From the NCBI GenBank assembly GCA_947478395.1, contig CANJVR010000003.1:384001-448000 (forward strand): a stretch of 64,000 bases of DNA, in the 5' to 3' direction. Positions 28,402 to 41,601 of this stretch are shown piece by piece. The DNA is from Opitutia bacterium (GTDB taxonomy: Bacteria; Verrucomicrobiota; Verrucomicrobiia; Opitutales; Opitutaceae). The notes below the pieces were generated by a model that saw nothing but the letters and a program-made list of their open reading frames with translations, did no database searches and was not told the DNA's origin. Position numbers and translations under genes: made by a program. Position 1 is the stretch's first letter; every line of letters begins with the position of its first letter.

Positions 28402-28494
28402 AGGCCCTGATATGGCGTGGAAGGCGCGACGGGCGCACGAAAAAAATCGCCAGTGGTTCCGGCGTGCGCTGAATCAGCGTGATCTTTTCGTTTG

Positions 28495-30198
28495 ATGTTC
28501 ACTGAACCTCCACGCCCGCCGACCGCCCCCGTGTCGTGGCGGCGCGATCTGCTCCTGCTCACGCTCGCATTCGGCCTGCTTTTTGCGTTCCGGCTGGGCA
28601 GTTACCCGCTGAGCAATCCGGACGAGGGGCGTTACGCCGAAATCCCGCGCGAGATGGTCGCGGGCGGCGACTGGATCACGCCGCGGCTCGACGGCATTAA
28701 CTACTTCGAGAAGCCGCCGTTGGTCTACTGGACCACCGCGCTGTGCCTGAAATTTTTCGGCCCTAGCGAGTGGTCGATGCGCGCGACCCCAGCGCTGTTT
28801 GCGCTCGCGGGCGTGTTGCTGACTTATGGAGCGGCGCGTAAACTTCACGGCCGCGCGGCCGGCCTCGGCGCGGCGGTGGTCTTGGGGACGTCGATTCTCT
28901 GGTTCGTGCTGGGGCGGATCATGCTGCTCGACATGGCGGTGTCTGTTTTGATGAGTGCGACGTTGTTCTGTTTTATCCTCGCGGTGCGTGAGCCCGCGGG
29001 AGCGACGCGGCGGTGGCTGTTTTACGGGCTCTATGCGAGCGCCGCGCTCGCGACGCTGACGAAGGGGCTGATCGGATTTCTCGTCACGGGGGCGGTAATG
29101 TTTCTCTGGCTCTTGGTTTTCAACCAATGGAAACGGCTGCGACCGATGCATCTGCCCTCGGGCATCGCGCTGTTTCTGGCGATCGCGGCGCCGTGGCATC
29201 TCCTCGCCGCCTCGCACAATGAAACTTGGGTTCACCGTTACTTGGTCTACGAGCACTGGGAACGTTTCACGTCTCCCGCCGCCTCCCGGCCCGGCGCATG
29301 GTGGTATTTCATCCCCATCGTTCTCGGCGGCCTGATCCCGTGGAGCGGGTTTCTATTCTCCGCGGTACGCGATGGACTCCGCGGCGGCTGGGCGAAGCGC
29401 GAGGAGAACGGCGTCGCCTGGTTTTTGGTCACGTGGGCCGGTTTCATTTTTTTATTTTTCACCAAGTCGCACTCGAAACTCGCGCCTTACATTTTGCCGA
29501 TTTTCCCGGCCCTGGCGGTGCTGGTCGGCGGTTGGCTCGCGCGCCTGCCGCTGGGCCGGGCCGGGGCGGCGCGGGCGCGGGTGGGCCTGGGCGTATTTTC
29601 GTTTTTCTGCGGCCTGCTGGCGGCGGCGCTTTGCGTGTTGGTGTTGCGGCCGGCCTTGGTCCGCATGGCGCCGGAACAGGCGCTGGCGCTGCGCCCCCCC
29701 GCATTGACCATGGCGGTCGTGCTGGCGCTCGGCGGAATCCTGGCGCCTTGGTGGGCGAAGGTCCGGGGCATGCGCGCCGCCATGGGTGTGATCGTCGCGA
29801 CGATGGCGGTTTTTTTCGGCACGCTGATGTTTGCGGCGCCGGACATTTCGAAGCCCGGCACCAAACCGCTGGCCTTGCTCGTCAAGGCGCGCGCGTTACC
29901 GGGCGATCGCGTCGTGCACTATCACGAATTTTTCCACGACTTCACGTTTTATGCGGAGCGCGTGGTGGATACCGTGGCATTCAAGGGCGAACTCGAACTC
30001 GAGGAGGACGCCGCCGCGCGTGCGACCGGGCGCTACGATATGAAGGAGGCGGCGTTCCGCGCGCTCTGGAGCGGATCGGGCCGGGTGTGGGCCGTCGCGC
30101 GCAAGAAGGATCTCAAGGAACTTTTTGCCGACACCGCGTTTCGTTATCATTTGATCGCGGAAACCCCCGATCACATCCTTTTCAGCAATCAACCCTGA
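28495..30198 (+). CDS. arnT: Lipid A 4-amino-4-deoxy-L-arabinose transferase (GT83/ArnT-like)
   Basis: PDEGRYAEIPREM, GDWITPRLDG..YFEKPPL.YW, LTKG, SKL.PYILP; first gene of the arn operon. Confidence 0.85.
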   Translation: MFTEPPRPPTAPVSWRRDLLLLTLAFGLLFAFRLGSYPLSNPDEGRYAEIPREMVAGGDWITPRLDGINYFEKPPLVYWTTALCLKFFGPSEWSMRATPALFALAGVLLTYGAARKLHGRAAGLGAAVVLGTSILWFVLGRIMLLDMAVSVLMSATLFCFILAVREPAGATRRWLFYGLYASAALATLTKGLIGFLVTGAVMFLWLLVFNQWKRLRPMHLPSGIALFLAIAAPWHLLAASHNETWVHRYLVYEHWERFTSPAASRPGAWWYFIPIVLGGLIPWSGFLFSAVRDGLRGGWAKREENGVAWFLVTWAGFIFLFFTKSHSKLAPYILPIFPALAVLVGGWLARLPLGRAGAARARVGLGVFSFFCGLLAAALCVLVLRPALVRMAPEQALALRPPALTMAVVLALGGILAPWWAKVRGMRAAMGVIVATMAVFFGTLMFAAPDISKPGTKPLALLVKARALPGDRVVHYHEFFHDFTFYAERVVDTVAFKGELELEEDAAARATGRYDMKEAAFRALWSGSGRVWAVARKKDLKELFADTAFRYHLIAETPDHILFSNQP

Positions 30199-30199
30199 T

Positions 30200-31390
30200 A
30201 TGTCCGCTCTCGCATCGACGACCGCTCCCGCCGCTTTGGCTCCGCCCGCGCTGCCTTATCTTCCCCTCACGCGCCCGACGATCGACGAGGAAACGATTGC
30301 CGGCGTCTGCGAAGTGCTGCGCTCGGGCTGGATCACGTCCGGCCCCAACGTAAAAGCCCTCGAGGGAAAACTCTCCGAATATTTCGGCGGCCGGCCGGTG
30401 CGCGTATTCAACTCCGGCACCTGCACGATGGAAATCGCCCTGCGCATCGCGGGCGTTGGCGCCGGTCACGAGGTCATCACCACGCCGTTGTCGTGGGTCG
30501 CGACGAGCAACGTCATCCTCGAAGTCGGCGCCAAGCCGGTGTTCGTCGATATCGATCCCGTCACGCGCAATCTCGATCTGGATCGCGTCGAGGCGGCCAT
30601 CACACCGGCCACACGCGCGATCATCCCCGTCGATCTCGCTGGGCTGCCGGTCGATCGCGACCGTCTCTATGCGATCGCGAAAAAGCATAATCTTCGCGTC
30701 GTCGAGGATGCCGCGCAATCGATGGGCACGACGTGGCAGGGCCAACGCATCGGCGGGTTCGGCGATTTTGTGTCGTTCAGTTTTCATCCGAATAAAAACA
30801 TCACGACGATCGAGGGCGGTTGTCTCGTGATGAACACCGAAGCCGAGGCCAAGCTCGCCGAGCAATACCGCTTGCAGGGCGTGGTGCGCTCGGGCTTCGA
30901 CGGCATGGAGGTCGAGGTGGTCGGCGGGAAATTTAATCTCACGGACGTAGCCGCGCGCGTGGGCCTCGGGCAATTGCCGCGGCTGGAAGAGTTCAACGCG
31001 AAGCGCCGCGAGCTGGCGCGGGCCTATTTCGATGAATTTGCCGCACCCGGCGTCGCGGCCGCCGGGCTCGGCCTGCCGGTCGCTGATTTCAAACAGAGCA
31101 ACTGGCACATGTTTCAAGTCATGCTGCCCGCGGCGCGGCTCACGCTGACCCGCGCCGAAGTCATGGCGAAATTGCACGCGGCCGGCGTCGGTAGCGGGGT
31201 GCATTACCCGCCGATTCATCTTTTCGCGATTTATCGCCGGCTCGGCTGGAAAGAGGGCGATTGCCCGCAGGCCGAGGCGGTGGGCCGCAGCATTCTCACG
31301 CTGCCGCTTTTCCCGACGATGGCCCGGAGCGACGTCACGCGCGTGGTCAACGCGCTGGTCAAGATTCTGGCCGACCATAAAAAAGCATGA
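30200..31390 (+). CDS. arnB: UDP-4-keto-arabinose aminotransferase (DegT/DnrJ family)
   Basis: LRSGWITSGP, EDAAQ, SFHPNKNITTIEGG (PLP lysine), GVHYPP, LTLPLFP. Confidence 0.88.
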   Translation: MSALASTTAPAALAPPALPYLPLTRPTIDEETIAGVCEVLRSGWITSGPNVKALEGKLSEYFGGRPVRVFNSGTCTMEIALRIAGVGAGHEVITTPLSWVATSNVILEVGAKPVFVDIDPVTRNLDLDRVEAAITPATRAIIPVDLAGLPVDRDRLYAIAKKHNLRVVEDAAQSMGTTWQGQRIGGFGDFVSFSFHPNKNITTIEGGCLVMNTEAEAKLAEQYRLQGVVRSGFDGMEVEVVGGKFNLTDVAARVGLGQLPRLEEFNAKRRELARAYFDEFAAPGVAAAGLGLPVADFKQSNWHMFQVMLPAARLTLTRAEVMAKLHAAGVGSGVHYPPIHLFAIYRRLGWKEGDCPQAEAVGRSILTLPLFPTMARSDVTRVVNALVKILADHKKA

Positions 31391-32343
31391 CTGCGCCGAA
31401 CCATCTCCCGCTTTCCATCGTAATCCCCGTTTACAACGAGGAGCTGAATCTGCCGACCCTCTTCGCGCGGCTTTATCCCGCGCTCGATGCGCTCGGGCGC
31501 CGGTATGAAATCATTTTCACCAACGACGGTTCGCACGACCGGTCGATCGAGTTGCTCAAGGCGCAATACGCGGCGCGGCCCGATGTGACGCGCGTCATCG
31601 ATTTCAACGCCAACTACGGCCAGCACATGGCGATCATGGCCGCGTTTGAGCGGGTGCGCGGCGACGTGATCGTGACCCTCGATGCTGATCTGCAAAATCC
31701 GCCCGAGGAAATCCACAAACTGCTGGAAAAAATCGACGCCGGCCACGACTACGTGGGCGGCTACCGGCTGGAGCGGCAGGATTCGTTTTTTCGGAAATAC
31801 GCCTCGAAGCTGATCAATTTTGTGCGCGAGAAAACCACGAGCATCGAAATGACAGATCAAGGTTGCATGCTCCGCGCCTACTCGCGCCCGATCATCGACG
31901 CGATCGTGCGCAGCGGCGCGATCAATACGTTCATCCCCGCGCTCGCCTACAGTTTTTCGGGCCATCCGGCGGAAGTAGGGGTGAAACACGAGGAGCGCCA
32001 CGCCGGCGTGTCGAACTACTCGTTCTACAGTCTGATCCGGTTGAACTTCGACTTGATCACCGGCTTCTCGATCGCGCCCTTGCAATATTTCACGATGTTC
32101 GCGATGGCCTGTTCGGGCGGAAGTTTTGCGCTGGTGGCCGTGCTGCTCGTGCGCCGGTTCGTCTTCGACAATCTCGACCGCGACACCTTCGGCGTGTTCA
32201 CGCTGCTGGCGTTTGTCCTCTTTTTGCTGAGCGTCGCGATGATCGGCATCGGCCTGATCGGCGAATACGTGGGGCGCACTTACCAAGTCGTTCGCGCGCG
32301 CCAGCGGTACCACGTGAAGGAAGTATTGGAGGCGAAAAGCTAA
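31387..32343 (+). CDS. arnC: Undecaprenyl-phosphate Ara4FN transferase (GT2)
   Basis: SIVIPVYNEE, NDGS.D, NYGQHMAIMAAF, TLDADLQNPPEEI, two C-terminal TM helices. Confidence 0.88.
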   Translation: MTAPNHLPLSIVIPVYNEELNLPTLFARLYPALDALGRRYEIIFTNDGSHDRSIELLKAQYAARPDVTRVIDFNANYGQHMAIMAAFERVRGDVIVTLDADLQNPPEEIHKLLEKIDAGHDYVGGYRLERQDSFFRKYASKLINFVREKTTSIEMTDQGCMLRAYSRPIIDAIVRSGAINTFIPALAYSFSGHPAEVGVKHEERHAGVSNYSFYSLIRLNFDLITGFSIAPLQYFTMFAMACSGGSFALVAVLLVRRFVFDNLDRDTFGVFTLLAFVLFLLSVAMIGIGLIGEYVGRTYQVVRARQRYHVKEVLEAKS

Positions 32344-32346
32344 AGC

Positions 32347-33252
32347 ATGGGTCGGCCCCGCATCATTTTTTTCGGCTACAGCGAAGTAGGCTATTCGTGT
32401 TTGTCGCTGCTGCTGGAGCGCGGTGACAACGTCGTCGCGCTCATCACGCACGAGGACAATCCGCACGAGAAAATCTGGTTCAAGACGCCCGCCGTCGCTG
32501 CGCGCGAGCAAGGGATGCCGGTTTTCACCCCCGAGTCAGTCAATACGCCCGAATGGCGCGAACGGATCGCGGCCCTCCGGCCCGATTTGATCCTTTCGGT
32601 GTACTACCGCCACATGATCGGCACCAAGATCCTCGCTTTGCCGCCGCTCGGCGCCTGGAACATGCATGGTTCCCTGCTGCCGAAATACCGCGGACGCGCC
32701 CCGATCAATTGGGCGGTGCTGCACGGTGAGCCACGTATCGGCATGACGCTGCATCGCATGGTGAAAAGCGCCGACGCCGGCGCCGTGGTCGATCAAGCGG
32801 GCGTGGACATCGGGCCGCGCGATACGGCCGAGCAGGCTTTTCGGAAAGCGCTGCCGTGCGCCCGGGCCGTGCTGGCGCGCCAGATCGATTCGCTGCTCGC
32901 CGGAACCGTAAAAGAGACCGCTCAGGATGAGTCGCAGGCGAACTACTTCGGCGGACGCAAACCCGAGGATGGCCGAATCGACTGGACGCGGACGAGCGCG
33001 CAAATTTTCAACCTGATCCGCGCCGTGACCGATCCGTATCCAGGTGCTTTCACCGACGTGGGCGCGTCGCGCCTGATGGTGTGGTGGGCCGAATCCGAGT
33101 CACCTGCGGCCCAGGGAAAGCGCGGTGCGCCCGGTGAAATTCTGTTCGTGACGCCGCTGGTGATCGCGACAGGCGATGGCGCGCTGGAACTCACGAAGAT
33201 TGAGTGGCGTGACGCACCCGGACCGGAGTTGAAGGTGGGGCAAAAATTATAG
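32347..33252 (+). CDS. UDP-Ara4N formyltransferase (stand-alone ArnA N-terminal domain)
   Basis: NMHGSLLPKYRGRAPINWAVLHGE, ADAG, YFGGRKPEDG, NLIRAVT.PYPGAF. Confidence 0.9.
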   Translation: MGRPRIIFFGYSEVGYSCLSLLLERGDNVVALITHEDNPHEKIWFKTPAVAAREQGMPVFTPESVNTPEWRERIAALRPDLILSVYYRHMIGTKILALPPLGAWNMHGSLLPKYRGRAPINWAVLHGEPRIGMTLHRMVKSADAGAVVDQAGVDIGPRDTAEQAFRKALPCARAVLARQIDSLLAGTVKETAQDESQANYFGGRKPEDGRIDWTRTSAQIFNLIRAVTDPYPGAFTDVGASRLMVWWAESESPAAQGKRGAPGEILFVTPLVIATGDGALELTKIEWRDAPGPELKVGQKL

Positions 33253-33341
33253 GACTGATACGCGCGGCTTCCCGGCGGTCATCTTCGTTCGTGTCTTTTC
33301 CGCCGCTTCATGGTTAACCCTCTTTCTTAAACCACTCACTC

Positions 33342-34379
33342 ATGCCTCTCAAAGTTCTCATCCTCGGTGCCAACGGTTTCATCGGCAGCTCGCTCACGCG
33401 GGCGATCCTTAAACAGAAAGACTGGGAGGTCTACGGGATGGATATCGGCTCGCACAAGCTGGAGGACAGCCTCGGCAACCCGCGTTTCAAGTTCGTCGAG
33501 GGCGATATCACGATCAACCGCGAGTACATCGAATATCACGTGAAGAAGTGCGACGCGGTTATCCCGCTCGTCGCGATCGCGAATCCGATTCAGTACGTGA
33601 AGGACCCGCTGAAGGTTTTCGAACTCGATTTCGAAGCTAACCTCGCGGTCGTTCGCCACTGCGCGAAATACAAGAAGCGCATCATCTTTCCGTCCACCTC
33701 CGAGGTCTACGGCATGAGCACGGACAAACACCTCGATGAGGCCACGACCTCGCTCGTCTACGGGCCCATCGAGCGCCAGCGCTGGATTTATGCGTGCTCG
33801 AAGCAGCTGCTCGACCGCGTGATTTACGCCTACGGCGTGCGCGACAACGTGGACTACACGCTCTTCCGTCCGTTCAATTGGATCGGACCGAAGCTGGACG
33901 ACGTGATGGAGCCGAAGGAGGGCAGCTCGCGCCTCTTTACGCAGTTCATCTCGAACGTGATCTTTAAAAAGCCGCTGCAGCTCGTCGACGGCGGCAAGCA
34001 GAGCCGTTCGTTTACCTTCATCGATGACGGCGTGGATGCGTTGCTGCGCATCATCGAAAACAAGGACGGCTGTGCGTCGCGGCAGATTTTCAATCTCGGC
34101 AATCCGCGGAACGACGTGAGCGTGGCCGAGCTGGCGAAGCTCATCATCGAGGCCTTTAAGGACTATCCCGATTACGCCGAGCACGCCGCGCAGGCGAAAA
34201 CCGTGGTCGTGACCTCGGGCAAATATTTCGGAAAATATTATCAGGACATCCAGAAGCGCGTGCCCTCAATCGCGAATGCGAAGAAACAGCTGGGCTGGAA
34301 TCCCAAGGTGAACCTCAAGAAGGCGATCAAGCTCACGCTGGATTACCACCTCGCGCACAAAGATTATCAGCTGGAATGA
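33342..34379 (+). CDS. UDP-glucuronate dehydrogenase/decarboxylase (stand-alone ArnA C-terminal domain)
   Basis: ILGANGFIG, PLVAIANP..Y...PL.VFELDFE.NL, FPSTSEVYG, RWIYACSKQLLDRVI, FRPFNWIGP. Confidence 0.92.
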   Translation: MPLKVLILGANGFIGSSLTRAILKQKDWEVYGMDIGSHKLEDSLGNPRFKFVEGDITINREYIEYHVKKCDAVIPLVAIANPIQYVKDPLKVFELDFEANLAVVRHCAKYKKRIIFPSTSEVYGMSTDKHLDEATTSLVYGPIERQRWIYACSKQLLDRVIYAYGVRDNVDYTLFRPFNWIGPKLDDVMEPKEGSSRLFTQFISNVIFKKPLQLVDGGKQSRSFTFIDDGVDALLRIIENKDGCASRQIFNLGNPRNDVSVAELAKLIIEAFKDYPDYAEHAAQAKTVVVTSGKYFGKYYQDIQKRVPSIANAKKQLGWNPKVNLKKAIKLTLDYHLAHKDYQLE

Positions 34380-34381
34380 CG

Positions 34382-34444
34382 TGGGAGCGCGGGCGCCCTC
34401 GTCCGCTGGAATTTCGGAAGCGGACGAGGGCGTCCGCGCTCCCA
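34382..34444. repeat. Inverted-repeat REP-like element between arnA2 and arnD
   Basis: TGGGAGCGCGGGCGCCCTCGTCCGCT (34382-34407) and AGCGGACGAGGGCGTCCGCGCTCCCA (34419-34444): 25/26 complementary. Confidence 0.8.
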
Positions 34445-34467
34445 GTAAAGAACCAACGTAATCACCC

Positions 34468-35373
34468 ATGCCCATCCGCCTCGCTCTCAAAGTCGACGTC
34501 GATACCGATCGCGGTACGCGCGAGGGTGTGCCGAATCTGGTCGCCGATTGCGAGGCGGTGGAGGCGCCTGCGGCGTTTCTCTTTTCGCTCGGGCCGGATC
34601 AGACCGGCCGGGCGATCACGCGGGTGTTTCGCCCCGGATTTTTCCAGAAGGTCAGCCGCACGAGCGTGGTGCAGATCTACGGAGTACGCACCCTGCTCAA
34701 CGGCACGCTGCTCCCGGCGCCGCATATCGGCCGGCGCAACGCCGCTGTCATGCGGGCTGTACGCGATGCGGGCTTCGAGGTGGGGATCCACTGCTTTAAC
34801 CATTACCGCTGGCAGGACTACCTGCACGCGATGCCGCTCGCGGCCGTGCGGGAGGAATTCGGAGCGGCCCGCGCGGAATTTCTGCGCATTTTTGGGGTGG
34901 AGGCCCGCACGGCGGGAGCACCGGGCTGGCAGAGTAACGCGAAAAGCCGGGAGGTTTACGACGAAGCAGAACTGCTTTACGCGAGCGACACGCGCGGGGG
35001 AGACCCGTTTTTTCCGCGGGTGGGCGGGCACGTTTTTAAAACGCTCGAAATTCCGAGCACGCTGCCGACGTTCGACGAGTTGATGGGCCGGCCGGAATAT
35101 CCGGACGATAAAATCGTCGCGCACTATCTCTCGTTACTGCGCGGCGATCGCCCGAACGTGTTTACGCTGCACGCCGAGATTGAGGGCATGGGCCGTCGCA
35201 CGCTTTTTCGGGAATTACTCGCGGCGTGCAAAAACGCGGGCGTGGAATTCGTCCGCATGGACGACCTCGCGCAGGAATTGCTCGCGAACCGGGCGACGAT
35301 TCCGGTGCGGGACCAAGTGATGGCGGAGATCGACGGCCGATCGGGCTTCGTGGCAGCGCAGTCTGGGGCGTGA
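34468..35373 (+). CDS. arnD: Undecaprenyl-P-Ara4FN deformylase (polysaccharide deacetylase fold)
   Basis: LKVDVDT.RGTREGVP, FSLGPD.TGR, GAPGW, YASDTRG, IPSTLPTFDE, TLHAEIEG. Confidence 0.88.
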   Translation: MPIRLALKVDVDTDRGTREGVPNLVADCEAVEAPAAFLFSLGPDQTGRAITRVFRPGFFQKVSRTSVVQIYGVRTLLNGTLLPAPHIGRRNAAVMRAVRDAGFEVGIHCFNHYRWQDYLHAMPLAAVREEFGAARAEFLRIFGVEARTAGAPGWQSNAKSREVYDEAELLYASDTRGGDPFFPRVGGHVFKTLEIPSTLPTFDELMGRPEYPDDKIVAHYLSLLRGDRPNVFTLHAEIEGMGRRTLFRELLAACKNAGVEFVRMDDLAQELLANRATIPVRDQVMAEIDGRSGFVAAQSGA

Positions 35374-36730: not shown

Positions 36731-37441
36731 TTATGGCGCGGCCCAAGTTTGGATCACCCCGGGCAGTTCGAGCGCGGATTTTAGCGTGAAGAAACGTCCG
36801 GATGCTTCGGGCGCCGCTTCGACGCGCTCCGCGGCCCACGTGATAGGATAGGGCACGTGCGCGCCGGCTCCGCCGAGGGCCAGCACGGGCAGGATGTCGG
36901 ACTTGAGCGAATTGCCGACCATCAGGAAGCGCGCGGGCGCGATCGCATGACGGCGGAAAAGCGCGGCGTAGCTCGATACATCCTTTTCGGAGAGAATTTC
37001 GACGTGACGAAAATGCGTGGCGAGCCCGGAGCGCGCGAGTTTTCGCTCCTGATCCCGCAGATCGCCTTTCGTGATGACGAGCAGGCGGTACGCGGGGGCA
37101 AGGTCGGCCAGGATTTCAGGAATGCCGGGCAGGACATCGACGGGATGCGCCAGCATTTCCTGACCGAGCGCGATGAGTTGCTGGATTTCGCTCGCGCTGA
37201 TTTTTCCGGCGGTGAGCGCGATGGCGGTCTCGATGGCGGAGAGGGTGAAGCCTTTCACCCCGTAGCCGTACAACTCCAGGTTGCGCATCTCCGTCGCGAA
37301 TAACATGCGGTCGACCGTGGCCGCGTCGTGGTAGTGCGCGAGGAGGGTGCGATAGCGTGCGTGGACGCGCTCGAAGATGGTTTCGTTGTGCCAGAGCGTG
37401 TCGTCGGCATCGAAGCCGATGGTGAGTTCAGAGGCGGCCAT
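36731..37441 (-). CDS. HAD-superfamily hydrolase
   Basis: IGFDADDTLWHNE, ITKGDL.DQERK, MVGNSLKSDILP. Confidence 0.9.
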   Translation of the reverse strand: MAASELTIGFDADDTLWHNETIFERVHARYRTLLAHYHDAATVDRMLFATEMRNLELYGYGVKGFTLSAIETAIALTAGKISASEIQQLIALGQEMLAHPVDVLPGIPEILADLAPAYRLLVITKGDLRDQERKLARSGLATHFRHVEILSEKDVSSYAALFRRHAIAPARFLMVGNSLKSDILPVLALGGAGAHVPYPITWAAERVEAAPEASGRFFTLKSALELPGVIQTWAAP

Positions 37442-37724
37442 GGACAAAAACGCAAGGCAGCCGGGCATCGCATGGCAATGCCGCGCTCAGGTGCGGATCG
37501 AAACGCTCGGTGAATGCCGGACCGAGATCGGCGGCGGAATCCGGCCAGACAAGGGCGACTCGAAGCGGTTCGGCGGATGGATCGCCGCCGGGGATATAAG
37601 GTGCGGGCGGGTGGCCTAAATCGCTGCGGAGGCGGATAGCGTGTTGAACGTTTACGCCGGCACCTTCGGCGGTTGGGCTTGTCGCAGCGGGTTCGCCCGA
37701 ATTGGCTAACCACGGATTACACGG

Positions 37725-38579
37725 ATGAAACGGATAAGATTTTTGACCTGGATCTTTGCTCTATGGGCTTTTGTTGCCCTCGGACTACACGCGGCCGAGA
37801 GCGAATCGCTGGCGCAGCGCACGCTGCGTCAGCTCACGGAGCGGCAGCGCACGCTCTTCGAGGATGCCGCGAAGCAGGGGGACAACTTGGAGGCGGAATC
37901 ATTTCGTTCGCAGGTGCAGGATTTGAGTCACAGCTATGAACGGCTGTTGCAGGACAATCCCAAGTTCGCCGCGGCCTACGCGGCTTATGGTTATCTTTTG
38001 TGCAAGGTCGACATGCGCAAGCAGGCGGCGGCGCTTTTGCTGAAGGCCAACCAGCTCGATAGCGACATTCCCCTCGTAAAAAACCAGCTGGGCAACCTGC
38101 TGGCTGAGGATGGTAAGCCGCTCGATGCGCTGCCTTATTTTCTCGCGGCGGTGAAACTGGTGCCCAACGAGCCCTTGTACCACTATCAGCTCGGCACGCT
38201 GCTGGCCGAGGCGCGTGATGATTTTCTGAAGAGCGGGTCGTGGACGCGGCCGGCGCTCGATCGCGCGATGCACGAGGCGTTTCGTCGTGCGGCGGAGCTG
38301 GCCCCGGCGCGCTTCGAGTTTGGCTACCGTTACGCGGAGTCGTTTTACGATCTCGCCACGCCGGATTGGGACGGAGCGCTCAAGGTCTGGGCGGCGTTGG
38401 AAGAAAAAGCGCCCACTCCGATCGAGCAGCAGACCCTCCGTTTGCATGCGGCAAATGTGTTGTTGAAACAGGGCCGCGCCGACCAGGCGAAACTCCTGCT
38501 CAACACCGTGACGGAGCCGGCCCTTCAGGCGCAGAAACAAAAGCTGATTGCACCGCCGGCTGAGACCGAGAAAAAGTGA
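37725..38579 (+). CDS. Secreted TPR-repeat protein
   Basis: Signal peptide; helical repeats (AAYAAYGYLL, VKNQLGNLL...ALPYFLAAVKLVP, YHYQLGTLL). Confidence 0.8.
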   Translation: MKRIRFLTWIFALWAFVALGLHAAESESLAQRTLRQLTERQRTLFEDAAKQGDNLEAESFRSQVQDLSHSYERLLQDNPKFAAAYAAYGYLLCKVDMRKQAAALLLKANQLDSDIPLVKNQLGNLLAEDGKPLDALPYFLAAVKLVPNEPLYHYQLGTLLAEARDDFLKSGSWTRPALDRAMHEAFRRAAELAPARFEFGYRYAESFYDLATPDWDGALKVWAALEEKAPTPIEQQTLRLHAANVLLKQGRADQAKLLLNTVTEPALQAQKQKLIAPPAETEKK

Positions 38580-38585
38580 CGGGCT

Positions 38586-39254
38586 ATGGATCTTGGTCTC
38601 ACGCCTGATGTTCTGCGCACCGGACTGCTACTTTATCTCCTGTTGGTGGTGACGCTTTGTCTGCGCACCTACGGCCAGGCGTGGGTGGCCACGCGGCTGG
38701 GCGATTCGACTCCGGCCGACCACGGTCGTCTCACGCTGAATCCGCTGCCTCATATGGATCTGATCGGTTCGGTGATTCTGCCGCTAATTTGTATTTTTTA
38801 TCTGCAGCCGCGGTTGGGTGGCATCAGTTTTTTTCTGGCGTGGGCCCGGCCGGTCCCGATCAACCCGTCGAATTTCCCCCATCCCGGCCGCGACTACATG
38901 TACACCCAGCTCGCCAATCCGGTCGTGAGTCTGGGCCTTGCGTTGGTCGCCTCGGTGGCAGGCGGACTGATGTTTCACTTCGATCCCCGCACGCTCGAGC
39001 TGTTCGGCTCGCTGATTATACTCAACGCGAGTCTCATCGTGATTGATTTCCTCCCCATCCCGCCGCTGCCCGGCGGCATGGTGCTCAAGCAACTCGGCGT
39101 GATGAGCGAGGAGACGTTCTGGCAGATTTCGCGCTGGAGCGGGCTCGTGCTGATGGTGGCGTTTAACATCCCCGCGGTGCGCGCCTTGATTTCGTTCATG
39201 ATCGGGCTGGTGGCGGCGCCGTTCGCGCTGTTGCTGCGATCGTTGATTTCATGA
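38586..39254 (+). CDS. Site-2 protease (M50) homologue lacking catalytic motifs
   Basis: Family block AWVA.RLGD.TP...GRLTLNPL.H.D.IG, WARPVPINP and LPIPPL retained. HExxH reads RTYGQ and NxxPxxxLDG reads DFLPIPPLPGG. Confidence 0.82.
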   Translation: MDLGLTPDVLRTGLLLYLLLVVTLCLRTYGQAWVATRLGDSTPADHGRLTLNPLPHMDLIGSVILPLICIFYLQPRLGGISFFLAWARPVPINPSNFPHPGRDYMYTQLANPVVSLGLALVASVAGGLMFHFDPRTLELFGSLIILNASLIVIDFLPIPPLPGGMVLKQLGVMSEETFWQISRWSGLVLMVAFNIPAVRALISFMIGLVAAPFALLLRSLIS

Positions 39255-40186
39255 GCGACGCGGCGACGGTGTTCTCCCGCTTAATCGGGCGAGGTGCGTC
39301 GCGGGCCGAGACCGTGGGCGCCTGGCTTCGGTTGGCGGAAAAACTTTACGCTCAGGCGGGCGCCGGTCTTGGCCAGGTATCGGCCAGCGCGCACGATGAA
39401 GCGCTTTACCTGCTGCTGCGTACGCTGGAGCTGCCGCTTGATAGCGACGCGCGCGTGCTGAAAAAAAAACTGACCGCCGCGCAGCGTACTAACGTAGCGG
39501 CGGTGTTTCGCCGGCGGCTCGTCGAGCGGGTGCCGGCGGCTTATCTCACGCGCGAAGCGTGGCTCGGCGAAGATCGATTCTATGTCGACGAGCGAGTGAT
39601 TATTCCCCGTTCCTATTTTTTGGAGATTATCCCGGAGCAACTCGACGACTGGTTGCCGGCCGCGAAGCAAGTCACGCACGTGGTGGATGTTTGCACCGGC
39701 TCGGGTTGTCTCGCGATTCTGCTGGCGAAACATTTTCCAAAGGCCCGCGTGGACGCCGTGGACCTCTCAACCGCGGCACTCGAAGTGGCGGCCATCAATG
39801 TGAAATCTCACCGGCTGGGGCGGCGCGTGGCATTGCACTGCAGCGATGTCTTCGACCGAGTTCCTGCGGCGAAGTACGATGTGATTCTGAGTAACCCGCC
39901 CTACGAGCCGAGTGCGCATTGCGACGCGCTGCCGTTGGAGTTTCAGCGGGAACCGCGGCTGGCGCTCGACGGCGGCGCGGACGGCCTCGATATCATTCGC
40001 AAGCTGCTGCGCCAGGCGCGGACCCGACTGCAGCCGCACGGCATTGTATTGATTGAAGTGGGCGGATTGCGCGCGGTGATGGACCGCGAATTTGCCGCGC
40101 TCGAGCCGCACTGGTTGCAGACGCACGACGGCAGCGACTGCGTATGCGTGATCAATGCGGCGCGGCTGAAACGGTGGCGGGGTTGA
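39251..40186 (+). CDS. prmB: Ribosomal protein L3 N5-glutamine methyltransferase
   Basis: ERVPAAYLT.EAW, FYVDERVIIPRS, DVCTGSGCLAI, SNPPY, EP.LAL.GG.DGLD, IEVG. Confidence 0.85.
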   Translation: MSDAATVFSRLIGRGASRAETVGAWLRLAEKLYAQAGAGLGQVSASAHDEALYLLLRTLELPLDSDARVLKKKLTAAQRTNVAAVFRRRLVERVPAAYLTREAWLGEDRFYVDERVIIPRSYFLEIIPEQLDDWLPAAKQVTHVVDVCTGSGCLAILLAKHFPKARVDAVDLSTAALEVAAINVKSHRLGRRVALHCSDVFDRVPAAKYDVILSNPPYEPSAHCDALPLEFQREPRLALDGGADGLDIIRKLLRQARTRLQPHGIVLIEVGGLRAVMDREFAALEPHWLQTHDGSDCVCVINAARLKRWRG

Positions 40187-40206
40187 GCTCGGATTTCGGA
40201 AGGTTC

Positions 40207-40318
40207 GCCACGAAGAGGCCCCAAGATTCCTCTTTTTCTCCGACTGCCTCCCCGGCGCGCCTCCAGGCGCATCAACGCGTTGCTGGAGCGGAGTAAACTT
40301 TTCGTGCCTTTTCGTGGC
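40207..40318. mobile_element. Putative MITE-like element (copy 1) with imperfect terminal inverted repeats
   Basis: GCCACGAAGAGGC...GCCTTTTCGTGGC termini and internal GCGCGCCTCCAGGCGC core; related copy at 41624-41732. Confidence 0.55.
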
Positions 40319-40401
40319 CAAAATTCCGGAGTTTGAACTCGGCGATTGTCTCGACGGGCGCGGCGGCTTGGCATGGCGGGCGCTTTTCAAGCACCTCATT
40401 C

Positions 40402-41601
40402 ATGGACGCTCATTTGATGGAATTTCTCGGGATGCTGGTGCGCTGGCTGCACGTCATTGCCGGCGTGGCGTGGATCGGGTCGTCGTTTTATTTCATCTGG
40501 CTCGACAACAGCCTCGATGCACCCGAACCCGGTTCCGCCAACGCGACGAAGGGCGTCTCCGGCGAACTCTGGGCGGTCCATGGCGGCGGTTTCTATAATC
40601 CGCAGAAGTACGCCGTCGCGCCGCCATTGCTGCCGGAGAAATTGCACTGGTTCAAATGGGAGGCGTACACGACGTGGCTTTCGGGCACCGCGCTGCTGGT
40701 GCTCGTTTACTGGCTGCACGCGCAGACGATGATGGTCGACTCGCGCCTCGTGGCGCTTTCGGGCCTTCAGGCCGTCGGGATCGGCGCCGGCAGCATGGTG
40801 CTTTCGTGGTTCGTGTACGACGCGTTGTGCCGTTCGCCGCTCGGTAAACGCGAAGGACTGCTCGCCCTGGTGGTGTTTGCGTTGCTCGGCGGTTTGACCT
40901 GGGCGCTCTGCCACTGGCTCGGCGGGCGCGCCGCGTACATCCACGTCGGCACTTCGATCGGCACGATCATGGCGGCAAACGTTTTTTTCGTGATCATCCC
41001 CGGGCAGAAAAAAATGGTGGATGCGATGCGCGCGGGCGGTTTACCGGATCCGATCTACGGCAAGCGCGGCAAGCAGCGCAGCGTGCATAATAATTATTTC
41101 ACGCTGCCGGTGATTTTCATCATGATCAGCAACCACTATGCTGCGACGTACAGCCACGCGCAAAATTGGGCCGTGTTGCTGCTGATCTCGGGCGCGGCGG
41201 TGTCGATCCGCCATTTTTTCAATCGCAAGCACAAGGGCGTCTACGCGTGGCAATTCCTGGGCGCGGGCGGCGTGATGCTCGGATTTACCGCGTGGTGGAC
41301 GGGGCCGCACGGCCCGCCGCCGCCGATGTCTGCGCTGCCGGTCAGCTTTGCGCAGATCCAGCCGATCATGGCGCAGCGTTGTGCGACCTGCCACATGCCC
41401 ACGCCAACGTTTCCCGGCATCGCGCAGGCCCCGGCGGGCGTTTTGCTGAACAACTCAGCGAACATCGCGCAGAACGCGGGCCGGATATATCAGCAGGTCG
41501 CGGTGACGCGCATCATGCCGCTCGGGAATATTACACAAATCACCGACGAGGAACGCGCGATGATCGCCCGCTGGGTCCACGACGGGGCGAAGACGCAGTG
41601 A
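40402..41601 (+). CDS. puuD: Membrane urate hydroxylase with C-terminal cytochrome c
   Basis: RWLHVIAG.AWIGSSFYFIWLD, GELWAVHGGGFY, LHWFKWEAYTTWLSG, KQRSVHNNYFTLPV.F.MISNHY, CATCH, MPLGN.T. Confidence 0.9.
   Translation: MDAHLMEFLGMLVRWLHVIAGVAWIGSSFYFIWLDNSLDAPEPGSANATKGVSGELWAVHGGGFYNPQKYAVAPPLLPEKLHWFKWEAYTTWLSGTALLVLVYWLHAQTMMVDSRLVALSGLQAVGIGAGSMVLSWFVYDALCRSPLGKREGLLALVVFALLGGLTWALCHWLGGRAAYIHVGTSIGTIMAANVFFVIIPGQKKMVDAMRAGGLPDPIYGKRGKQRSVHNNYFTLPVIFIMISNHYAATYSHAQNWAVLLLISGAAVSIRHFFNRKHKGVYAWQFLGAGGVMLGFTAWWTGPHGPPPPMSALPVSFAQIQPIMAQRCATCHMPTPTFPGIAQAPAGVLLNNSANIAQNAGRIYQQVAVTRIMPLGNITQITDEERAMIARWVHDGAKTQ

Follow-up and report, generated by a model that had tools for sequence, protein, structure and literature searches.

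Why should a bacterium keep a protease homologue that has lost its zinc ligands and its catalytic glutamate? The question is raised by a stretch of 64,000 nucleotides (hereafter the window) from an Opitutia bacterium of the family Opitutaceae (GenBank assembly GCA_947478395.1, contig CANJVR010000003.1, positions 384,001 to 448,000), in which a gene for a 222-residue homologue of the M50, or site-2, proteases (S2Ps) lies between a gene for a tetratricopeptide-repeat (TPR) protein and prmB. The results described below indicate that its product is almost certainly a functional pseudoprotease, and that it is one of several gene-sized occupants, among them intact S2Ps and a non-homologous membrane protein here called Derlin-like, that are exchanged between the same two flanking genes.

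The earlier note on this DNA had reported, in an intact frame, the loss of all three zinc ligands and of the catalytic glutamate, with RTYGQ in place of HExxH and proline in place of the aspartate of the LDG motif. Alignment with orthologues bore this out, the substitutions being H27R, E28T, H31Q and D162P, and disclosed two further changes: the asparagine of the NxxPxxxxDG motif has become Asp154 and that of the GPxxN motif Ser115. Residues 154-164 (DFLPIPPLPGG) align with NLIPLPPLDGG of the orthologues. Both motifs by which an active S2P is recognized, namely HExxH in the first transmembrane segment (TM1) and NxxPxxxxDG, which carries the third zinc ligand and the substrate-clamping asparagine, are absent from the window protein. 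The corresponding residues of RseP bind zinc (H22, H26 and D402) or clamp the substrate (N394; 10.1101/2022.01.31.478169), the equivalence of N394 to residue 154 being assigned by motif position.

Despite a weak match to Pfam PF02163 (13.8 bits versus a cut-off of 27.2, which the intact sister alleles exceed), the protein is, judged by its sequence, an M50/site-2 protease homologue. A profile of the dead form (72 homologues) matched one of the intact subfamily (74 homologues) with a probability of 100 and an E-value of 3.6e-63, and the intact-subfamily profile in turn matched MjS2P (3b4r; E 2.6e-16), RseP and SpoIVFB. The AlphaFold2 model of the dead protein (pLDDT 90.9) had 3b4r as its top Foldseek match, a weak one (E 0.22, probability 0.96, TM 0.42), and no match at an E-value of 0.001 or better. 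The dead form has lost the polar catalytic pocket (H27, E28, H31, N115, N154 and D162) and retained the loop after TM1, W86/P89 and the proline bulge. The loop (G39-G61) is likely the substrate-binding strand region, to judge from its position relative to the edge strand of RseP (10.1101/2022.01.31.478169), and G39, D40, T42, P43, G47, R48, T50, P53, H56, D58 and G61 are at least 90% conserved in both the dead and the intact group.

In total, 225 homologues were found. Motifs were counted in the best 120 of these, query included, a similarity ranking that favours the dead clade; they are 51-73% identical to the query, and R27, Q31, D154 and P162 occur in all 120 and Q108 in 118. The motifs were also read in all 148 S2P-carrying genomes among 401 genomes of the family, and in three more. 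The resulting 151 copies comprised 110 intact, 36 of the dead clade and five otherwise altered (107, 36 and five, respectively, in the 148 family genomes). R27 and Q31 were present in 36 of 36 dead-clade copies, and the histidines in 110 of 110 intact copies. All of the intact copies also kept N115 and both the asparagine and the aspartate of NxxPxxxxD, while 83% of the dead copies carried serine at position 115.

The dead forms constitute one clade (SH-aLRT 100 in a quick tree, 22 members), which was recovered with a value of 97 after exclusion of the motif columns together with 17 rows that were redundant or long. The clade branches on a long stem (0.86) from among intact Opitutaceae alleles and covers 10 genus codes with open reading frames; it has a single origin. 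Values of dN/dS were 0.11-0.29 in 10 dead pairs and 0.03-0.26 in the nine computable of 10 intact pairs, although these are pairwise estimates from our own counting script at dS of 0.26-1.8 and hence rough. The catalytic residues are lost and the gene is kept under purifying selection, which supports the pseudoprotease inferred in the earlier note.

That a redundant protease is decaying neutrally, or that its odd motifs are a sequencing artefact, would be suggested by the congeners of the window genome: 16 of 17 encode HExxH at this locus (in one case truncated at the end of a contig), and the remaining one carries a dead allele 70% identical to that of the window. Decay is, however, refuted by the invariance of the new residues in all 120 listed homologues, together with the low dN/dS. 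An assembly or sequencing error is ruled out by the recovery of the same allele in independent samples: DNA contigs from runs X16 and X14, of two other studies, span the motif region without any listed difference in the motif codons, and of five listed differences within the gene that were translated, four were silent. Either explanation can practically be dismissed. The earlier note would have given way before close orthologues with HExxH combined with neutral evolution of this copy; the orthologues exist, and the neutral evolution does not. Transcription is hinted at by two 151-nt RNA contigs on the S2P gene in run X20 (none in X19), contigs giving neither level nor strand. The search for a sigma-70-like promoter in positions 37300-40500 found none and was uninformative.

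Separate inactivations occurred outside the dead clade, in five of the 148 family copies: the motif reads RE[WS]AR in four genomes and HGWIR, with an Asp-to-Pro change, in one. In the former type both histidines have become arginine and the glutamate and aspartate are kept; the loci concerned, including that with HGWIR, are L095, L104, L190 (genus code g32), L203 and L120. The HGWIR copy lies on a long branch, and its genome also carries a Derlin-like gene. In a library clustered at 50% identity (151 rows), 117 rows were intact, 14 were fragments and 20 (of 137 scored) were altered; among these 20 are the query itself, two rows of the dead clade and a few that are truncated or misaligned.

The surroundings of the gene were analyzed next to its sequence. 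As the earlier note had stated, the S2P start follows the TPR stop (38579) after a 6-nt gap and the gene overlaps prmB by ATGA (39251-39254), and the arrangement it had proposed for checking is well kept: among 41 dead loci, the TPR gene was upstream in 40 and prmB downstream in 38. The occupant of the slot does not share the history of its flanks. TPR and prmB follow genus on trees, and the combined TPR and PrmB tree (69 rows) requires 12 changes of genus, the minimum, and 11 changes of the dead state. In the S2P tree, several genera are split into three classes, and monophyly of the window genus was rejected (p-AU 2e-117). In the four closest dead/intact pairs, the TPR proteins are 82-91% and the PrmB proteins 86-88% identical, but the S2Ps only 35-46%, and at the DNA level identity declines where S2P begins and is regained within the first part of prmB. 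Gene-sized occupants are thus exchanged between the TPR gene and prmB, and exchange of alleles by recombination is the simplest reading of the discordance. A tandem array in the ancestor, reduced by repeated loss, is less likely, since the allele differs between sister genomes and the search of the family genomes showed none with two strong copies. A tandem pair of an active and a dead S2P was likewise rejected. Intact alleles also fall into deep classes that cross genera, HEWGH/LDGS and HEWAH/LDGG, which are 44-46% identical in two within-genus pairs (L026 versus L007-L020).

The earlier note had further suggested a membrane adaptor or decoy, perhaps paired with the TPR protein; this model is taken here to mean that the dead S2P anchors the periplasmic TPR protein in the membrane or acts as its receptor, or that it regulates an active S2P as a decoy. 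Association with the TPR gene is indeed old: TPR adjoins S2P in six of eight loci from other families of the order, whereas prmB does so in none of the eight and appears to be a mere flank of the slot, in this family only. The TPR-S2P link is older than the dead allele, and it persists when a non-homologous gene replaces S2P. The median ratio of TPR to PrmB divergence was also 1.67 for pairs of one S2P and one Derlin-like carrier, against 1.25 for pairs with the same occupant, the pairs not being independent. A special pairing with the dead form finds no support in these loci, since the same TPR gene stands before intact S2Ps and before the unrelated Derlin-like gene. No TPR column switched with the dead state in more than two of four genera, and no excess TPR change was found in the closest dead/active pairs. 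The decoy role fares no better, since the other M50 genes of the genome, one RseP-like and a second, more distant, are intact but too distant to offer a same-subfamily target; no second copy of the subfamily was found in the window genome, and in the family genomes the listed second matches scored at most 54 bits. Anchor and decoy alike are judged improbable.

Table 1. Positions in the window of the dead S2P gene, its altered or retained motifs, and the two flanking genes.
Feature	Position	Strand	Remarks
Catalytically dead M50/site-2 protease homologue, 222 aa, swappable slot gene	38586..39254	+	Frame intact
RTYGQ replacing HExxH (R27, T28, Q31)	38664..38678	+	Residues 27-31, in the column of HEWAH/HEWGH of orthologues
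Loop after TM1 (G39-G61), common to dead and intact alleles	38700..38768	+	Conservation
Remodelled TM2 motif: Q108 gained, Asn of GPxxN replaced by S115	38907..38930	+	
DxxPxxxxP (D154, P162) replacing NxxPxxxxD	39045..39071	+	
TPR-repeat protein, 284 aa, constant upstream neighbour of the slot	37725..38579	+	Pfam TPR_17 over cut-off
prmB, ribosomal protein L3 glutamine methyltransferase	39251..40186	+	TIGR03533, 321.6 bits (cut-off 229.7)

In 13 of 14 genomes without S2P, the gene directly upstream of prmB encodes a membrane protein of about 270 residues that bears a WR motif and ends in a Cys-rich tail. Similarity to the rhomboid and Derlin families is faint. Pfam DER1 matched one of five of these proteins at an E-value of 2.8e-4, below the cut-off, Rhomboid or DER1 was assigned to 13-15% of the members of its Atlas clusters, and its profile matched a rhomboid-family gene of the window genome with a probability of 90; against solved structures, the same profile found no relative at an E-value below 0.14. 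Among nine aligned members there is no invariant serine and no invariant membrane histidine, the only invariant histidine lying in the C-terminal Cys-rich tail; the Ser-His dyad is absent from the family as aligned, when read at the GxSG and His motif positions of rhomboids. The tail, rich in Cys and His, resembles a zinc finger, and the family is nearly invisible to Pfam and NCBIfam (e.g., L161:669-1487; L156-L168, L228-L267). Profile comparison indicated no homology between this family and S2P (probability 0.3).

The Derlin-like gene was detected in 267 of the 401 family genomes, mostly in the same slot, with TPR and prmB both flanking it in 33 of 40 fetched regions. In these counts, and in those for the order and the phylum given below, kin are not independent and a limited number of candidates was scored per genome; within that scope, both families were present in 18 of the 401 genomes versus 98.5 expected, neither in four, and at least one in 397. 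The Derlin-like gene occurs in none of the 36 dead-clade genomes versus 17 of the 107 with intact S2P. The four presumed exceptions, whose identity follows from numbering gaps, comprise two genomes without TPR and prmB matches, one with a run of N in the slot and one with TPR but no slot gene, and three of the four look like assembly gaps. In the Opitutaceae, the two families are near mutually exclusive.

Such exclusion could also be a product of the slot itself, if recombination between TPR and prmB replaces the resident gene, the jobs of the occupants differ and the dead S2P has an unrelated non-catalytic role of its own. The boundaries of the swaps coincide with the gene, tandem S2P and Derlin-like genes were found in 10 loci in both orders (TPR-Derlin-S2P-prmB and TPR-S2P-Derlin-prmB), as would be expected of intermediates, and the lack of homology between the two families fits as well. 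A mere slot effect does not account readily for the near-universal retention of one family or the other, nor for the persistence of the negative association in families with the Derlin-like gene at another site. Within the order but outside the Opitutaceae, the Derlin-like gene was present in six of eight genomes without an S2P match and absent from both S2P carriers tested, and none of its six loci had TPR or prmB within 1.5 kb. We consider this explanation unlikely. Around the Derlin-like and S2P genes of those other families the gene content was varied and gave no functional clue.

That S2P and the Derlin-like protein have a job in common is somewhat more likely than not. Such a job would likely be non-proteolytic, because nearly all family genomes keep one of the genes, the dead S2P suffices, and the Derlin-like occupant also appears to lack catalytic residues. 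By analogy, and tentatively, the dead S2P may be a non-cutting membrane adaptor that shares a quality-control job with intact S2P and the Derlin-like protein, likely binding membrane-protein clients; we regard this as quite possible. Two precedents suggest it. In quality control, Derlins and iRhoms, inactive representatives of an intramembrane-protease fold, bind clients and thin the membrane (PMC12615303); they are eukaryotic and of the rhomboid fold, and the S2P of the window is unrelated to them in sequence, but the alternative occupant of the slot resembles them. YqgP of Bacillus subtilis, a bacterial intramembrane-protease fold, acts as an adaptor that presents substrate to FtsH without needing its own protease activity (PMC7231995), and serves as the model for the mechanism proposed here. 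In that mechanism, R27, Q31, Q108 and D154 would form a fixed polar network in the vacated zinc pocket, leaving the fold stable without metal, and the retained loop after TM1 would go on binding a client helix or thinning the bilayer. Clients might then be held, or passed to a processive protease such as FtsH, as with YqgP and the Derlins, while the alleles would likely pass from one relative to another through homologous recombination, with the TPR gene and prmB as anchors.

With less assurance, one may go further: the dead S2P and the Derlin-like pseudo-rhomboid could be interchangeable for one near-indispensable, non-cutting quality-control step, and persist over long times as a balanced polymorphism that moves between genera at one housekeeping slot, in which case the widespread small M50 subfamily would have a mainly non-proteolytic function.

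Several points weigh against the adaptor reading and its extension. The involvement of FtsH is proposed by analogy alone, and the client, the partner and the non-cutting activity of the dead S2P are putative only. The substrate-clamping asparagine, N394 of RseP, has become aspartate, and Arg27 may block or close the pocket. YqgP, itself active as a rhomboid, has its adaptor function as a second role, for which an unobstructed active site is required (PMC7231995), whereas the window protein is an M50 homologue and its inactivity is fixed. Intact alleles (107 of 148) strictly keep HExxH and the aspartate, so cutting is selected in most carriers. The label Derlin-like, drawn from weak DER1 and rhomboid similarity, is a lead, with the fold unconfirmed; the model of that protein, built from a nine-row alignment, reached a pLDDT of 53.8 and was not used for fold search. 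The window genome has three other rhomboid-family genes, two of them without GxSG. One shared slot alone can yield exclusion. Two of the results in its favour have limits. The flank tree of 101 rows shows at least 18 S2P/Derlin-like changes and 14 changes of the dead state, and 12 of 13 independent pairs went opposite ways (p 0.0005), but the tree held only two of the 18 both-gene genomes, and Derlin-only genomes picked by hand, a sampling that favours exclusion. In the phylum, where the association is again negative, 103 of 251 genomes had S2P, 80 the Derlin-like gene and nine both versus 32.8 expected; against the reading, 77 had neither, and many of the weaker S2P matches may belong to another M50 subfamily.

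The fast turnover apparent from the 101-row tree would be accounted for by another explanation, compatible with the adaptor reading, in which the active site of the slot protein offers a phage, bacteriocin or contact toxin its point of attack: loss of the site or a swap of fold would be favoured when rare, while a needed scaffold role is kept. The repeated His-to-Arg changes in separate lineages agree with such escape, and a precedent exists in enterococcal RseP, HExxH mutants of which lose their sensitivity to bacteriocins (PMC5413573). No antagonist is known here, however, PADLOC gave no match for four of four proteins, and selection inside each allele class is purifying rather than diversifying; escape is rather unlikely. 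New chemistry has also been considered: R27, Q31, Q108 and D154 would make up a novel site that either catalyses or binds a ligand, such as the head group of an anionic lipid or the C-terminus of a peptide. Their invariance equals that of the catalytic residues whose place they took, and they arose on the long stem, but there is no nucleophile or new set of metal ligands among the dead-specific residues, H56 and D58 are common to intact alleles, and the other inactivated lineages use different residues. Such a site is quite improbable.

The closest system described in print is EGY3 of plant chloroplasts, likewise a conserved M50/S2P homologue without HExxH, which is reported to stabilise proteins and not to cut them. 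It is described as the sole pseudoenzyme of the S2P family, in plant cells only (PMC9355673; also PMC10978774). The window protein is set apart by description: it is bacterial, 222 residues long, nested among intact Opitutaceae alleles and replaces them at one locus, and this branching points to an origin of the dead clade separate from EGY3. EGY3 was the only S2P pseudoprotease found in print by our search of largely open-access papers, which retrieved no bacterial inactive S2P and no displacement between S2P and rhomboid. Databases label the homologues as ordinary site-2 or Zn-dependent proteases. Compared with the small PDZ-less M50 S2Ps (MjS2P, 3b4r; SpoIVFB, 8vjl; with RseP as mechanistic reference), which the intact sisters resemble in matching Pfam M50 and 3b4r, the dead form has both histidine ligands, the glutamate, the aspartate ligand and two pocket asparagines replaced.

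Some further features deserve mention. The TPR protein likely has a signal peptide, as read by eye, and its Atlas look-alikes are Verrucomicrobiota TPR clusters. Downstream of prmB (40333-41601, +) lies a fusion of the N-terminal membrane domain of urate oxidase with a weak cytochrome c domain, which follows prmB in 10 of 41 dead loci as well, while in another genome (G350) the region downstream of prmB (L270:3395-3760) has a repeated short peptide pattern in its translation, suggesting a DNA repeat array such as CRISPR. A cluster read by eye as Arn-like lipid A modification occupies 28492-35373 (+), in which the ArnA formyltransferase (32347-33252) and dehydrogenase (33342-34379) parts are separate genes. 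Of the rhomboid-family genes elsewhere in the window genome, that at C3:325279-325692 (-), outside the window, has GLSG and His and presumably recalls the rhombosortases; those at C2:561511 and C1:273043 lack GxSG.

The conserved clade of bacterial S2P pseudoproteases is itself new as far as the papers searched show, but the pattern of swapping matters more. Intact, dead and non-homologous alleles between the same flanks in close relatives constitute a ready complementation series, by which two questions become testable: the role of small PDZ-less M50 proteins and that of bacterial Derlin-like proteins. If it is true that a dead S2P replaces a pseudo-rhomboid, a non-catalytic membrane role would be common to intramembrane-protease folds and would have been reached more than once.

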